In this document: positions 1,316-7,944 of the stretch, in pieces
Position numbering within the stretch: position 1 is the stretch's first letter
Layout of the letters: each line of letters starts with the position of its first letter
UHGV virus genome: UHGV-1443331
From: a virus
Reading direction: 5' to 3' (one strand)
Length of the DNA stretch: 9,649 nucleotides
The notes under the pieces: generated by a model
The model's input: the letters and a program-made list of their open reading frames with translations, nothing else
What the model was told of the DNA's origin: nothing
Databases searched by the model: none
Made by a program: the position numbers and the translations under genes

Positions 1316-1343
1316 ATTTAACATAATATACATTATGCGCACC
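1316..1343 (-). other. dif: dif site (XerC/XerD chromosome dimer resolution site); left attachment site of the integrated phage
   Basis: Reverse complement of 1316..1343 is GGTGCGCATAATGTATATTATGTTAAAT, the canonical enterobacterial dif 28-mer as recalled from memory (XerC arm GGTGCGCATAA, central TGTATA, XerD arm TTATGTTAAAT). Confidence 0.85.
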
Positions 1344-1615: not shown

Positions 1616-1688
1616 TTTATCTCCTCGTAATGCTGCCGCGCCGAATCAGCAATAACGCTAAAAAAACAGAATTGTTCGGCTTGGCCAA

Positions 1689-1729
1689 CCCCGGACACTA
1701 ACAAAAGCAAGTTTTGTCACTGTCCGGGG
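1689..1729 (-). terminator. Long imperfect hairpin 3 nt after the 102-aa ORF stop; possible terminator or RNA structure
   Basis: ccccggaca pairs with tgtccgggg (9 bp), with an inner 6-bp stem acaaaa/ttttgt around a 5-nt loop. On the minus strand a T7 run (complement of 1660..1666) follows about 22 nt downstream, which is not canonical spacing. Confidence 0.35.
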
Positions 1730-1732
1730 TTA

Positions 1733-2041: not shown

Positions 2042-2061
2042 TAGTTACCCCAATCAATAAT

Positions 2062-2121
2062 GTCCATTTGATGGATAGCGAGCAGGGCTCACGCACCTAC
2101 CCGCTATCCATCAAAGTGGAC
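2062..2121 (-). repeat. 19-bp inverted repeat (hairpin with 21-nt loop) spanning the gIV stop codon; candidate packaging signal or structured element
   Basis: gtccatttgatggatagcg (2062..2080) pairs with cgctatccatcaaagtggac (2102..2121) with one bulged base; loop 2081..2101. It sits where Ff phages carry the post-gIV terminator and packaging-signal hairpin. Confidence 0.5.
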
Positions 2122-3376
2122 GAATGATATGTGCTGTAAGCAAAATATACATAATACGCTGTTCATTGCTGTCTGCCTTGCTACTGAAAATCCAGCCTAT
2201 AAGAGGAATTTTACTTATAACTGGAACTGAACGCTCAGCATTGCTAAACGATGAATCGATAAGCCCCCCCAATAACAACGTCTGACCATCCTTAATCTGG
2301 ACTGTCGTCTGAATCTGGCGCTGATTAGTAATAATATCGGATGCCTGATCATCATTGCTGATTGAATCAGCGCGAGTGTCGATAGTCAGAACTAGTTGCC
2401 CGTTACCCATGACAACAGGCGTTACCTTGAGAGAAACGCCAACATCATGACGCTCGATAGTCTGAAACGGATTATTTACCCCGGCAGATTCGCCCGTTAC
2501 CTTTCCGGTGATAAACGGCACATTCTTACCTACGGAAATGTAACCAGTCTGACCAGACTGAGTAAGAATACGCGGCGTTGAAATCACCTTAGAGCGTGAA
2601 TTACTCTGGACAGCACGCAGAGACAGCGCCAACACGTTACCATCAAAAATACCAAAAGAACCGCCCGCCGTAGAAAGAGCGCTACCCAGTGCAGAAGTAT
2701 TAAAGCCCCCCGCAACCTTATGACCGGATGCAGAACCTGCCGCAAACGATAAATCAACGCCATCAGACAAGCTGGTTTCAAACATCAGCGACTGAATGAG
2801 AACCTGATCGCGGGCAACATCCACAGAATTGATAAAATCGGACAGAACCGGCAGCAGCTCGTCAGGCGCAGAAACAATCAGCGAGTTATTGCCTGGATAA
2901 TCCACGACATTACCACCACCATTAGAATCAAGATAAATTTTAATCAGTTGCTGAACATCGGACGATCTAACTTTTGTCAGCTTAAAATTTCTGACCGTAA
3001 GCGCCACAGGTACTGGCTGGTAAGATGGCTCAGAAGGAAAAGTATCATAAGACTGGTTATCAGAATCATCGGAATCCGAAACCATCTGTGAAGGTAATTT
3101 AGACGGCAAAGAGACTACCGCAGGATTGCCAGAAAGCATGACAAAACCGTTAGCATTCAGAACAGACTTAAAGAAATCATCAATATTTGTTGGATTAACA
3201 TCAGCATTAAATACGGTTACGTTTCCTTTAATATCAGGATTAACAATAACAGGCTTGCCAGTTTTTGAAGAATACCACTGAACAAATGAGCGAACAGATG
3301 AATTGTTTAAATTAACAGTTTCAGCAGAAACGCAGAATGAACAGGCAAATAAAAAAGCAACAATAACAGAGCGCAT
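2111..3376 (-). CDS. IV: Filamentous phage pIV, outer-membrane secretin for virion export
   Basis: Signal-peptide-like start MRSVIVAFLFACSFCVSAETVNL with AGGAGT Shine-Dalgarno before the ATG at 3376 (the ORF track's upstream extension to 3469 overlaps gI and lacks a signal peptide). C-terminal secretin-type motif VPVISKIPLIGWIFSS. Last gene in Ff order after gI. Confidence 0.9.
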   Translation of the reverse strand: MRSVIVAFLFACSFCVSAETVNLNNSSVRSFVQWYSSKTGKPVIVNPDIKGNVTVFNADVNPTNIDDFFKSVLNANGFVMLSGNPAVVSLPSKLPSQMVSDSDDSDNQSYDTFPSEPSYQPVPVALTVRNFKLTKVRSSDVQQLIKIYLDSNGGGNVVDYPGNNSLIVSAPDELLPVLSDFINSVDVARDQVLIQSLMFETSLSDGVDLSFAAGSASGHKVAGGFNTSALGSALSTAGGSFGIFDGNVLALSLRAVQSNSRSKVISTPRILTQSGQTGYISVGKNVPFITGKVTGESAGVNNPFQTIERHDVGVSLKVTPVVMGNGQLVLTIDTRADSISNDDQASDIITNQRQIQTTVQIKDGQTLLLGGLIDSSFSNAERSVPVISKIPLIGWIFSSKADSNEQRIMYILLTAHIIRPL

Positions 3377-3383
3377 AATAATA

Positions 3384-3758
3384 TTACTCCTGACAGATAA
3401 CAGTCTGTAAATAACGGCCTTTTCTAATAACAACACGACAGGCATCTTTAATATCAACGGAATAACCATCTTTAATCAAATCAAAATACTGATATTTCGT
3501 ACCTTTTGCATCAACAAACGTAACGGAAACGTCAAAGCCAAGTTGTGAAAAAGAATTAATAGAAAGTCGGGGTAAGTCACTGGACGAATCAGGCGTTACC
3601 GCCCTCGCCTGTTCAGCATAAGCAGATTTAATAGCGGAGATTTCATCAACATTCTTTCCAGACTGGAGCCAGAAACCAAGCGCAAGCCCCAGCGCCAAAA
3701 AAGAAAGCATTAATATAAGACGGTTCGATTTGCGAAAATAAATTTTCGTGAGGCGCAT
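3384..3758 (-). CDS. XI: Candidate pXI: in-frame internal restart within gI giving the C-terminal 124 aa including the TM segment
   Basis: Internal ATG at 3758 (MRLTKIYFRKSNRLILMLSF...) lies just upstream of the TM helix, as for pXI in Ff phages. Inferred by analogy only. Confidence 0.3.
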   Translation of the reverse strand: MRLTKIYFRKSNRLILMLSFLALGLALGFWLQSGKNVDEISAIKSAYAEQARAVTPDSSSDLPRLSINSFSQLGFDVSVTFVDAKGTKYQYFDLIKDGYSVDIKDACRVVIRKGRYLQTVICQE

Positions 3759-4478
3759 ATAATAATTAAATCCTCTGTGAACAGAAAATTGACCGTGCGT
3801 GATAAATGGTGGCAAAAGCGAATAAGCACCATGCGGATAGTTATCAGTAAAAACCTGTTTTGTATTGTAGGCGGAATATAATGATTTTCCGGTGTATATC
3901 CATTTATCAACAGTAATTGAATTAACGTTATCACCATATTTGACAATGCCAAAGTGTACCTTTGGTAAAGAAAATCGCGCCCCTGAAACCAAATTCATAA
4001 TGGAGCCAACAAAAGGAATGTTTAATTTATCTGAACGGCGACAATAAACAACATGCTCAGCAAGCGCCAGACGAGCTTGCTTATCCATTATCGAAATATC
4101 CTGAATCAAAAATATAATATCCCAGCCTAATTTTCTGGCATGTAAAAACCAGTCAATAACAGGTTGTCTGTCTTTATCACCCCATGAGCGGGAATTAAAC
4201 CAAGTACCACATTCATCAAGTACAAGGAGGCCATTACGGGATTCATCGTAAGATGTATTCCCAATACCAATAGCAAGTAAATCATTTAATGAAGGCTTGT
4301 CAGGAATGCGAATAACGCGCGTTTTTTTCGCATAACGCCCAACCATAGGCATATTATGCAATTTAAGATCAAGATTAGTGGCAACAGGACAACCCTTAGC
4401 AAGTCTTTCCTGTATTCTGGAAACACTAACAAGTGTCTTGCCTGAGCCTAATTTGCCTGTTACTACATGAACCGCCAT
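3384..4478 (-). CDS. I: Filamentous phage pI, assembly ATPase (Zot-like) with Walker A motif
   Basis: N-terminus MAVHVVTGKLGSGKTLVSV...LLVLDECGTWFNSRSW...DWFLHARKLGWDIIFLIQD is near-identical in pattern to M13 pI as recalled; Walker A GKLGSGKT; internal TM segment LILMLSFLALGLALGFWL. Confidence 0.95.
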   Translation of the reverse strand: MAVHVVTGKLGSGKTLVSVSRIQERLAKGCPVATNLDLKLHNMPMVGRYAKKTRVIRIPDKPSLNDLLAIGIGNTSYDESRNGLLVLDECGTWFNSRSWGDKDRQPVIDWFLHARKLGWDIIFLIQDISIMDKQARLALAEHVVYCRRSDKLNIPFVGSIMNLVSGARFSLPKVHFGIVKYGDNVNSITVDKWIYTGKSLYSAYNTKQVFTDNYPHGAYSLLPPFITHGQFSVHRGFNYYMRLTKIYFRKSNRLILMLSFLALGLALGFWLQSGKNVDEISAIKSAYAEQARAVTPDSSSDLPRLSINSFSQLGFDVSVTFVDAKGTKYQYFDLIKDGYSVDIKDACRVVIRKGRYLQTVICQE

Positions 4479-6116: not shown

Positions 6117-6359
6117 TCAAACCGCTTTTGAAGAGAATTTTTTGAAAATACGAATGGCAAGCCCAGCGCCAACCACAGCCACAACAACAGGCCATACTTT
6201 ACCAATGAGATCATTTGCCTGAGTCAACAAAGCATCCATTGCCTGACCTGCATAATCAGTACCACCTGTAGCGCCTTCAGCCGCAAAAGAACTTGCAGAA
6301 ACAAAAAGCGCAGTTGAAGCCAGAGCAACTTTATATTTAACAGTAGACAGAATTTTCAT
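6117..6359 (-). CDS. VIII: Filamentous phage pVIII, major coat protein (IKe-like)
   Basis: 80 aa with signal peptide ending SFA/AEG. Mature region [46 protein letters not shown] closely matches IKe g8p (...[41 protein letters not shown], recalled). GGAG Shine-Dalgarno upstream. Confidence 0.95.
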
Positions 6360-6378
6360 AGGAATAACTCCATTAAGG

Positions 6379-6474
6379 TTACATTAATCGGTCAGAAAAT
6401 GATTTAAATGAACCGACCGCATAGAAAAGGGCAAAACCAAAGGTATAAGCCCCGAAGAAATAAACGATATACAT
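6379..6474 (-). CDS. IX: Filamentous phage pIX, minor coat protein (31 aa)
   Basis: Small hydrophobic ORF MYIVYFFGAYTFGFALFYAVGSFKSFSDRLM whose ATG overlaps the gVII stop (TAATG), placed between gVII and gVIII as in Ff. It is the true coding part of the track's 74-aa ORF 6379..6603. Confidence 0.75.
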   Translation of the reverse strand: MYIVYFFGAYTFGFALFYAVGSFKSFSDRLM

Positions 6475-6560
6475 TAACGAAAGACCCCCGCAGTAATCGC
6501 GCCGAGGCCAAAAGAAATAACGATGCCAGACGCTATCAAAATTTGAATAACATCGTCCAT
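6474..6560 (-). CDS. VII: Filamentous phage pVII, minor coat protein (28 aa)
   Basis: Hand-translated small ORF MDDVIQILIASGIVISFGLGAITAGVFR, resembling the M13 pVII C-terminus ...VLCFALGIIAGGQR (recalled). AAAGG Shine-Dalgarno upstream; begins 3 nt after the gV stop. Confidence 0.75.
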   Translation of the reverse strand: MDDVIQILIASGIVISFGLGAITAGVFR

Positions 6561-6562
6561 AT

Positions 6563-6880
6563 TTAACCTTTGATCTCTGCGATGCCACCATCGGAAGAAA
6601 CATTATAAGTTACACCTTCCCTACCCTCCATTGACCACGCACGGACATAGACAGGAATTTGAACTAATTTCCCAATGAAAGCATTCGCCTGGTTCATTAG
6701 ACCTGCGTTAACGAGAGTCTGAGAAACTCGAATAATAATTTGATCCTGCTTTGTACCACCAAAACCATCAGGTATTTCAAGGCCAATACCAATTTCATTA
6801 TAATAGCCCTGACCATTAACTTTATTACGTTGGCGGGCTCCCAACATTTTACCCTTAACGAAAAGACCATAATTAGACAT
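6563..6880 (-). CDS. V: Gene V-position protein, putative ssDNA-binding protein (105 aa)
   Basis: Only ORF of 60 aa or more between gII and gVII; AGGAAAG Shine-Dalgarno before the ATG at 6880. Sequence similarity to Ff gVp is not obvious, so the call rests on position. Confidence 0.55.
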   Translation of the reverse strand: MSNYGLFVKGKMLGARQRNKVNGQGYYNEIGIGLEIPDGFGGTKQDQIIIRVSQTLVNAGLMNQANAFIGKLVQIPVYVRAWSMEGREGVTYNVSSDGGIAEIKG

Positions 6881-6891
6881 ATTACTTTCCT

Positions 6892-7206
6892 TTAATGCCA
6901 GCTACTGGCGTGCGAAATACGGTTGTAATCGAAAATAAAACCTTTCTCATAAATCCATAAGGGGATTTCCACTGGCTTGGCTTCCAGCGTTCTTATTAGC
7001 GGAACAACGTTATTAGAGTCTGGTGAATCACAATAGAAATTAATATCGATACCGAACGAAAGCAATTCTCTTCTATGGCGATAAAAAGTGTTATGAGGTA
7101 ACATTTCTTTCATGTTAGCCCCTTGTTTCCAAAGTAAATAAGTTGACTGTATTTTTCTTGGCAGTTTCGTTATTTTTTCATCACTTAAAATAGCATTCTG
7201 ATTCAT
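6892..7206 (-). CDS. X: Candidate pX: in-frame internal restart within gII giving the C-terminal 104 aa
   Basis: Internal ATG at 7206 preceded by GGGAGAA about 9 nt upstream; Ff phages make pX (111 aa in M13) this way. Inferred by analogy. Confidence 0.3.
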   Translation of the reverse strand: MNQNAILSDEKITKLPRKIQSTYLLWKQGANMKEMLPHNTFYRHRRELLSFGIDINFYCDSPDSNNVVPLIRTLEAKPVEIPLWIYEKGFIFDYNRISHASSWH

Positions 7207-7944
7207 TTCTATTCTCCCTACATATTCAGAGAATAATTGACGTGGTGTTTTCATATTCCAGTTAGCGCCAAGCGTTAAATTTAAATCAATAAGCTCAGTT
7301 GTTCTTAATGTTAATTCAATACGTAATTTATCTTTCGTCCAGTCCAGTAACCCGGCTCGTACAAAATCTTCGGCTATCTGGTGCCCTTTTTTACCCGAAA
7401 CGTGTTCATCATATTTTGAATAAAATTTCAGACTCCATCGACGGGAGTTTTTACCTAAATAAACTGTACCGCCTTTCCCACATGCGCGACCATGGCGTGT
7501 TTTAGCTTTAAATTCGGCGGCATAAAGCCATGATCTGACATTTTCTAGCGTAGATAATGAATACATGTAATTAATGTCAACACGTGAAATTTTATACTGA
7601 CCTGCTATAACAGCTTTATAAGACGCTAAATCATGAGGAATATTCAATAAGGATAAAATCCTGGCATAGACCGTCAACATGAGCCCTTGTATATCATCCG
7701 ACCCAACAACAGAATGCCCCTGCAAAAACTTGGACGGATTACCATCAATGTACAAATGTGTCGCTTTACCTTCGCCATTAGATCCTATCGATCGTACTTT
7801 CATCGTTGCTTCATGCGAGCCGCGAACAGTCAGTCGCTTAACGGTTTCCCACTCAATTGCACCGTCAGCATCAACGCTGACAACACTCCCCGCCGGAAGC
7901 GGTTTGTGTGTGCAAGGGAAAATCCCGGTAAGCCAATCGATCAC
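6892..7944 (-). CDS. II: Filamentous phage pII, rolling-circle replication initiator (nickase)
   Basis: Motifs GNPSKFLQGHSVVGSDD and NNVVPLIR match M13 pII (ASPAKVLQGHNVFGTTD, NNVVPLVR; recalled). Preferred start is GTG at 7944 (protein begins IDWLTG, compare M13 MIDMLV) with a strong TGAGGAT Shine-Dalgarno; the track's GTG at 7986 is an upstream in-frame alternative. Confidence 0.9.
   Translation of the reverse strand: MIDWLTGIFPCTHKPLPAGSVVSVDADGAIEWETVKRLTVRGSHEATMKVRSIGSNGEGKATHLYIDGNPSKFLQGHSVVGSDDIQGLMLTVYARILSLLNIPHDLASYKAVIAGQYKISRVDINYMYSLSTLENVRSWLYAAEFKAKTRHGRACGKGGTVYLGKNSRRWSLKFYSKYDEHVSGKKGHQIAEDFVRAGLLDWTKDKLRIELTLRTTELIDLNLTLGANWNMKTPRQLFSEYVGRIEMNQNAILSDEKITKLPRKIQSTYLLWKQGANMKEMLPHNTFYRHRRELLSFGIDINFYCDSPDSNNVVPLIRTLEAKPVEIPLWIYEKGFIFDYNRISHASSWH

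Follow-up and report, generated by a model that had tools for sequence, protein, structure and literature searches.

Here we ask what the long inverted repeat straddling the stop codon of the secretin gene gIV of a filamentous prophage is for: whether it directs packaging of the phage DNA, or whether it serves transcription, replication or integration. The repeat lies at positions 2062-2121 of a 9649-nucleotide stretch of UHGV virus genome UHGV-1443331 (hereafter the window, meaning the whole stretch of DNA analyzed), and a first-pass annotation, made from the letters of the sequence, had proposed it as a candidate packaging signal. The window is a segment of the Escherichia coli chromosome, 100% identical to several complete genomes, and apart from its left end it consists of a filamentous prophage whose genes lie on the window minus strand in the order known from the Ff phages (f1, M13 and fd). 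This prophage is UPphi901-like and related to IKe and I2-2; it sits in tandem at dif, with the window minus strand as its viral strand. We consider that the hairpin is probably the packaging (morphogenetic) signal of this phage, homologous to the IKe and I2-2 signals, and would put the probability of this reading at roughly 80%. The reading draws on the structure and position of the hairpin, its homology, covariation and strand bias, its single occurrence per genome, and the cognate proteins encoded by the phage.

The inverted repeat was found where it had been placed, with 19 bp and one bulge. Read on the viral strand, its lower stem pairs GTCCA (2121-2117) with TGGAC (2066-2062), C2116 is bulged, and the middle stem pairs TTTGATGGATAGCG (2115-2102) perfectly with CGCTATCCATCAAA (2080-2067) over 14 bp. 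The 21-nt loop described in the first-pass annotation proved not to be a loop: it contains 8 further pairs (two of them G-T), one unpaired T (T2095) and a GTGA tetraloop, bringing the complete minus-strand hairpin (2062-2121) to 27 pairs with a 4-nt loop. The 5' arm of the middle stem (2102-2115, minus strand) holds the gIV stop codon TGA (2113-2111) together with the last gIV sense codon, so the overlap with the end of gIV is as described; the 3' arm (2067-2080, minus strand) is non-coding and covaries with the 5' arm. The hairpin also precedes the next open reading frame (ORF), as had been noted: position 2041, 20 nt past the base of the hairpin, is the start of a same-strand ORF of 102 amino acids.

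Folding as DNA and as RNA, which had been suggested as a check, gave a structure far beyond chance on the viral strand. As single-stranded DNA (ssDNA), this strand folds at -25.3 kcal/mol, compared with -9.1 +/- 2.1 kcal/mol for shuffled sequences (z = -7.6; none of 200 shuffles equalled it), and the complementary strand folds less well (-21.4 kcal/mol, z = -5.8). The RNA of viral sense folds at -49.4 kcal/mol (z = -8.6). A sliding 80-nt scan of the 8287-nt phage unit identified the hairpin as its most stable local ssDNA fold (-24.5 kcal/mol, against a mean of -6.0 and a standard deviation of 3.2); for the remaining strong hairpins of the phage, different roles are likely.

The proposal that this element is a packaging signal rather than a simple terminator is supported by its homology to annotated morphogenetic signals. 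In the IKe record (NC_002014), a stem loop at 6141-6196 is labelled as morphogenetic signal and as 'pot. transcription termination', and overlaps the gIV stop codon (6149-6151); in the I2-2 record (NC_001332), a 'morphogenetic signal' at 2260-2330 overlaps the gIV stop codon at 2271-2273. The window hairpin can be aligned with both, and the three apices are nearly identical. The conserved apical module of the window, CGGGTAGGTGCGTGAGCCCTGCTCG (2079-2103, minus strand), has CGGGTAGGTGCGCTAGCCCTGCCCG as its counterpart in IKe and GGGGTAGGTGCGTTAGCCCTGCCCC in I2-2; it is identical to the IKe signal at 22 of 25 positions, including CGGGTAGGTG and a GCG-NN-AGC cap, and carries CGGGT followed by GGTG in its ascending limb. 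A comparison of position, likewise suggested beforehand, showed that the IKe, I2-2 and f1 hairpins also hold the gIV stop codon in their 5' arm. The IKe signal further resembles that of the window in strand and in size (about 56-60 nt), and the C-terminus of the minor coat protein pVII is identical in the two phages. The lower stems of the window, IKe and I2-2 are unrelated in sequence, with pairing kept. Between the window and IKe, the difference extends over the lower and middle stem (TTTGATGGATAGCG in the window versus GAGGCTGC in IKe), and the 27 pairs of the window hairpin, with their 14-bp perfect run, compare with about 21 pairs and internal loops in IKe.

The surroundings of the three signals differ as well. 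The replication origins of IKe directly follow its signal, whereas the window hairpin precedes accessory genes. The I2-2 signal shares position, architecture and the apical motif, and the replication modules are related, I2-2 intergenic positions 2666-2699 being 91% identical to window positions 8311-8343. However, signal and origin-like block are about 385 nt apart in I2-2, within a single intergenic region, whereas about 2 kb separate them in the window phage and hold two accessory genes, the phage attachment site attP and a reverse-strand module. A search of the whole window against Rfam at gathering thresholds gave no match; no curated family covers the hairpin.

To examine conservation, relatives were gathered through their pIV proteins from GTDB genomes and IMG/VR, plus E. 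coli variants, which yielded 19 distinct versions of the locus, including E. coli variants, IMG/VR contigs, Izhakiella, Erwinia phage PEar1, IKe and I2-2. More distant pIV homologues (Halomonadaceae, Granulosicoccaceae, Stenotrophomonas and others) were left out, as in these the secretin gene is immediately followed by a different gene, or they probably belong to type II secretion. All 19 versions have a hairpin of 20-29 pairs at the gIV stop codon. RNAalifold on a plain MAFFT alignment recovered only 11 apical pairs, the stems being of unequal length and out of register, and this alignment was replaced by one based on a covariance model. In the model-based alignment, changes on both sides occur at 16 of the 27 pairs, giving 64 cells of covariation versus 23 +/- 3.9 in shuffled alignments (a value reached in none of 500 shuffles); controls in which the partners were slid by 1-3 columns gave 5-24 cells. 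Examples of compensatory change are GGATAGCG/CGCTATCC in the window versus GGCTGGCG/CGCCAGCC in the relative L096, and GTCCA/TGGAC in the window versus GGCGC/GCGCC in IKe. It should be noted that the lower 5' arm is constrained by the last pIV codons (RPL* in the window, KAL* or RAL* in relatives), and that the non-coding 3' arm tracks it. The first-pass annotation had named loss of the hairpin in related phages, or a signal mapped elsewhere, as grounds for abandoning the proposal; what we found instead is a hairpin kept with compensatory changes in 19 relatives.

The covariance model (R1; 70 positions) built from this 19-sequence family gives a minus-strand match at window 2056-2125, with 80.4 bits and an E-value of about 1e-20, a score that is partly by construction since the window is in the seed. 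In each genome there is one full-score match, always at the gIV stop codon and on the viral strand (50-82 bits), compared with at most 27 bits on the other strand. The viral strand folds better than its complement in all 19 sequences, by 5.1 kcal/mol on average, and each hairpin has 1-5 G-T pairs. At E <= 1, R1 did not detect the f1, If1-type or Photorhabdus-type hairpins. Since the model does not cross-detect them, the hairpin is assigned, on sequence grounds, to the IKe/I2-2 subtype and not to the Ff-type sequence family in the narrow sense.

Downstream of the hairpin, homology among UPphi/IKe relatives ends at its 3' base (about 2040-2062 in the window; L003, L005, L096 and L103), and unrelated accessory ORFs follow: the 102 amino acid ORF (h1) in the window, an 82 amino acid ORF in avian pathogenic E. 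coli (APEC) strains, and a zinc-ribbon protein in the 14.5-kb element pCREC572-6. Because homology ends after the hairpin and varied cargo follows, the hairpin belongs to the conserved morphogenesis module, whose edge it marks, and not to the downstream gene.

A scan of metagenomes with GGTAGGTGCGNNAGCCC returned mostly chance matches: one locus, L176, out of 81 screened (80 among the matches listed, plus L150) passes the model. L150, the sole new match in a viral contig, was rejected as a chance match within a high-GC coding region. In L176 (1128-1220 of metagenome contig OGVK01003317.1), the IKe-type apical hairpin CCTGTGGGGTAGGTGCGTAAGCCCTGCCCTACAGG is immediately preceded by a sequence similar to the minus-origin motif of Ff/IKe, GGTTCACGTAGTG(A/G)GCCATCGCC, an order of cis elements unlike that of IKe.

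As far as sequence analysis can assess them, the hairpin appears to have every feature of an Ff/IKe-type packaging signal. The signal hairpins of f1 (24 bp) and IKe (22 bp) lie between gIV and the origins and act in an orientation-dependent manner, as summarized in bioRxiv 10.1101/2023.12.30.573655 (citing Peeters 1985 and Russel and Model 1989), and the ascending limb of f1 reads CGGGT and then GGTG (Russel and Model 1989, as quoted in bioRxiv 10.1101/2023.12.30.573655). This ascending-limb motif is present on the viral strand of the window as GCGGGTAGGTGCG at 2104-2092. The viral strand of Ff phages is coated by pV except at the packaging hairpin, which stays exposed (PMC10175506), and C-terminal residues of pVII and pIX recognise the hairpin at the pI/pXI assembly site, where coating by pVIII and export through pIV begin (PMC10175506, PMC10480500). 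The window phage encodes its own pVII, pIX, pI, pV and pIV. The C-terminus of its pVII, SFGLGAITAGVFR, is identical to that of IKe pVII, and I2-2 pVII ends in ...GVLR. Co-variation between pVII and the apical motif was uninformative, as pVII is nearly unchanged, with an identical C-terminus, in the APEC variant whose apex differs.

Transferred from Ff biology, the following sequence of events may be proposed for the window phage. Rolling-circle replication would release the circular viral strand (the window minus strand), which pV dimers would coat and collapse into a rod. The 27-pair hairpin, as the most stable duplex in the genome, would remain uncoated and protrude at one end of the rod. 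At the inner membrane, the C-terminal ends of pVII and of pIX, its partner at the leading virion tip, would recognise the hairpin together with the pI assembly complex. With recognition, pVIII would begin to replace pV, and extrusion would start through the pIV channel; recognition would also set the orientation of the DNA in the virion.

Several points weigh against this interpretation. Packaging activity is attributed to the hairpin through its homologues, whose own labels in the IKe and I2-2 records are database annotations, and the content of Russel and Model 1989 is taken from a secondary citation. The covariation statistics lean towards structure, as the alignment was fitted to the model structure and the sequences are related. 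The description of UPphi901 (PMC7307601) mentions no hairpin, stem-loop or packaging signal. A position after gIV is not universal among packaging signals either, since the signal mapped in integrative filamentous phages of Xanthomonas is a short hairpin within gII (bioRxiv 10.1101/2023.12.30.573655). Finally, the label of the IKe homologue includes potential transcription termination, and the hairpin may have a second role in RNA.

This last point leads to the strongest competing explanation, in which the hairpin would act mainly as RNA, as a terminator, attenuator or protective 3' hairpin of the gIV message that controls read-through into h1/h2. The high stability of the RNA fold, the termination label of the IKe homologue and the location between gIV and the next gene on the same strand all speak for it, and G-U pairs are well tolerated in RNA. 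However, the GC-rich stem followed by a U-run of an intrinsic terminator was not found at this site: no T-run follows the hairpin in the window, as the first-pass annotation had remarked, the tail being ATTATTGATTGG, and the site is not picked up by a terminator scan. Each relative has a different tail (CCCTGAAC, TCTCCGTG, CCCTGACC), and only a few of these are T-rich. There is no promoter-like site between the hairpin and the 102 amino acid ORF, which suggests that this ORF probably needs read-through. In addition, the hairpin is kept ahead of unrelated downstream genes, and also in IKe and I2-2, where no downstream gene follows, and the G...A loop closed by C-G, a DNA motif, occurs in 19 of 19 sequences, while only some of these loops are also RNA GNRA loops. 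We therefore regard a mainly RNA function as improbable; an RNA role may exist as a minor second function beside packaging.

A clearly smaller chance is given to the hairpin being, or doubling as, the minus-strand origin, primed by RNA polymerase or primase. No homologue of the annotated IKe/Ff minus-origin hairpins was found in the window, and GCGNNAGC mini-hairpins are present at the primase-dependent origins of G4, St-1 and alpha3, the St-1/alpha3 version GCGTTAGC being the I2-2 apex (PMC13037366). In IKe, however, the homologous hairpin is annotated apart from the minus-origin hairpins (6333-6385 and 6410-6438), and the window has a better candidate at 1687-1731, where a second hairpin, also conserved, carries an invariant TTGGCCAAGCCG tail.

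It is still harder to see the hairpin as a recombination structure, either a single-strand attP folded as in CTXphi or a hot spot of cargo exchange, as might be suggested by the Xer/dif integration of the phage, its tandem copies, and the break in homology immediately 3' of the hairpin. A dif-like attP, GGTGCGCATAATGTACGACTCGTTATGTTGAAA, is located at 9598-9630, about 750 nt further along the viral strand, and an exact copy of dif at 1316-1343. This copy was the only site found by a dif search allowing <=3 mismatches, the hairpin has no XerC or XerD arm, and IKe and I2-2, which do not integrate, carry the same hairpin. A chance palindrome without function is excluded by the shuffling results and by compensatory conservation across the 19 relatives, even though inverted repeats do arise by chance and 40 pairs are listed in the window.

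A side observation concerns the apex of the hairpin. The predicted apex GCGTGAGC (2087-2094, minus strand) is a GTGA loop closed by C-G and matches in sequence the mini-hairpin motif GCGNNAGC. Mini-hairpin DNA (GCGNAGC/GCGNNAGC; Hirao and colleagues), defined as GCG-N(1-2)-AGC with two G-C pairs and a sheared G-A pair, is reported to be extremely stable, to be bound poorly by single-stranded DNA-binding protein (SSB), and to be present at the origins of G4, St-1 and alpha3 (PMC13037366). That review does not mention the packaging signals of filamentous phages, and no paper linking the two was found in the literature searched. Unlike free-standing mini-hairpins, the motif in the window caps a stem of 27 pairs. 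Each of the 19 IKe-type sequences has a loop with G in first and A in last place and with C-G closure, the versions being GTGA, GTAA, GTTA, GCTA, GCCA, GAA, GGA and GTTAA.

Other hairpins located after gIV were also inspected. The apex is GCGCAGC in an f1-like phage (L014), in If1-like phages (L116/L117) and in the Photorhabdus-type (L015/L111; L112 was also examined), and ACGCAGT in a Xenorhabdus prophage (L012); for the IKe type it can be written GCG-N(1-3)-AGC. A G...A loop with C-G closure thus caps every post-gIV packaging-type hairpin examined, and fits or nearly fits the mini-hairpin motif.

Such a cap could help the signal to stay free of pV. Speaking against its importance, 5 of the 19 loops are 5 nt long, which the canonical motif does not include, the motif by itself is about as frequent in the window as chance predicts (5 found versus 2.8 expected), and the f1 signal is reportedly unimpaired by loop substitutions (as related in bioRxiv 10.1101/2023.12.30.573655). 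We tentatively raise, as a speculation that may well prove wrong, a common plan in which Ff-like packaging hairpins would share a two-part core of mini-hairpin cap and CGGGT(N)GGTG limb. The cap (GCGCAGC in f1, If1-like and Photorhabdus hairpins; GCG-NN-AGC in IKe, I2-2 and UPphi; ACGCAGT in Xenorhabdus) would nucleate the hairpin and exclude pV and SSB, and the CGGGT(N)GGTG limb would be read sequence-specifically by the invariant C-terminus of pVII. In UPphi phages, the hairpin might in addition be a fixed boundary behind which cargo genes are exchanged.

Compared with more distant packaging signals, the window hairpin resembles hairpin A of the Ff phages (f1/M13/fd) in being a long imperfect hairpin that begins at the gIV stop codon on the viral strand, with a CGGGT then GGTG limb and a C-G-closed G...A loop (GCGCAGC in Ff). 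The Ff signal, whose readers are pVII, pIX and pI, acts in an orientation-dependent way. Beyond these short motifs, however, nothing can be aligned, and Ff pIV is only about 50% identical to that of the window. The signals of the Xanthomonas phages phiLf, phiLf-UK and phiLf2 are likewise cis-acting DNA hairpins of an integrating inovirus, but they have a GC stem of 7-8 bp, lie mostly inside the replication gene, work in either orientation and need specific loop bases, whereas the window hairpin is of the long Ff/IKe type and follows gIV.

With regard to other cis elements, the second hairpin (1687-1731, within an element at 1677-1731, minus strand) lies right after the 102 amino acid ORF; it has the arms AACCCCGGACAGTGACAAAAC...GTTAGTGTCCGGGGTT, folds at -22.3 kcal/mol and is followed by the invariant TTGGCCAAGCCG. 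UPphi relatives with other cargo genes retain it at 82-85% identity and show compensatory changes in its stem, and it is 74% identical in If1-like phages, where it is located inside the If1 major intergenic region. It is a candidate for the minus-strand origin or another replication element. When the intergenic regions of IKe and I2-2 were compared with the window by BLAST, only the packaging hairpin and, from I2-2, the block at 8311-8343 were recovered. This block (minus strand) contains a 13-bp hairpin, GAACGTGCAGTGTTGGTAATACTGCACGTTTGT, between two reverse-strand ORFs. Given the conserved I2-2 block and a gII of the short I2-2-like size class, 8311-8343 is probably the plus-strand origin or the gpII site; the nick-site sequence of the f1/IKe plus-strand origin was not found in the window. 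The replication module of the window phage is I2-2-like.

A further observation concerns window positions 9551-9630, where a terminator-like 24-bp hairpin follows the reverse-strand ORF of about 230 amino acids. One of its arms overlaps the XerD-side arm of attP GGTGCGCATAATGTACGACTCGTTATGTTGAAA (minus strand), and the arms are inverted copies of an XerD-arm-like TTATG(T/C)T(G/A)AA. Compared with dif, attP has a longer central region.

At the left end of the window are an SDR oxidoreductase pseudogene and a LysR regulator pseudogene, along with the exact dif copy (1316-1343, minus strand). Integration at dif takes place via the host Xer system. The prophage repeats in tandem with a unit of 8287 bp, the junction between copies holds the dif-like attP at 9598-9630, and the last 19 bases of the window belong to the next copy. 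In tandem at dif, two or more identical 8287-bp copies are present in NZ_CP122448 (L001, 7344-15630 onward), and matching places number up to 16 in some genomes (strain EC5502). Among 5426 complete E. coli genomes, 56 (about 1%) contain the prophage region, 49 of them at >=99% identity. This organization agrees with what Shapiro and Putonti described for the UPphi901 group, whose members are related to IKe and I2-2, integrate in tandem at dif, carry ORFs on the reverse strand, have two hypothetical genes where IKe, I2-2 and M13 have an intergenic region, and release DNase-protected phage DNA into the culture medium (PMC7307601).

The genes of the prophage on the minus strand comprise gII (6892-7986); gV, annotated as encoding the ssDNA-binding protein (6563-6880); gVII, for the 28 amino acid pVII that is the presumed reader of the signal (6474-6560; annotation and comparison with IKe pVII); gIX (6379-6474), for the 31 amino acid pIX (MYIVYFFGAYTFGFALFYAVGSFKSFSDRLM), which has no RefSeq annotation and was recognised by comparing the ORF translation with IKe and I2-2 pIX; gVIII (6117-6359); gIII and gVI, between gVIII and gI; gI (3384-4478), annotated as encoding the Zot-family assembly ATPase, part of the inner-membrane assembly site; and gIV (2111-3376), which encodes the pIV secretin, the outer-membrane export channel (Pfam Secretin 6.6e-43; RefSeq annotation), and whose 3' end lies inside the hairpin. 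At the amino acid level, pIV is 69-73% identical to that of I2-2, the PEar phages and IKe, its closest characterised relatives, and about 48-50% identical to that of f1 and If1. Two accessory ORFs follow gIV on the same strand, h1 (1733-2041; 102 amino acids) and a 77 amino acid ORF (1382-1615), and four ORFs of 60, 46, 91 and about 230 amino acids form an accessory module on the plus strand (8114-9533). None of these six ORFs received an assignment from Pfam or PADLOC, and their PHROGs matches were only to families of unknown function. Two CxxC pairs in the 77 amino acid protein suggest a zinc ribbon, and the C-terminal third of the protein of about 230 amino acids is hydrophobic.

Taken as a whole, the hairpin is an expected part of a known group of E. 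coli prophages and not a new kind of element, and it leaves the current understanding of filamentous-phage assembly unchanged. What the analysis adds is the assignment of a putative cis-acting packaging signal to the UPphi prophages that integrate at dif in uropathogenic E. coli and other Enterobacterales. The 70-position model and the 19-sequence alignment separate the variable parts of this signal (the lower and middle stem and the inner loop bases) from its fixed parts (the limb CGGGTAGGTG, and the GCG...AGC cap together with the G...A loop). This distinction may be of use in the design of UPphi/IKe phagemids, in predicting cross-packaging among co-resident inoviruses, and in the annotation of prophages.

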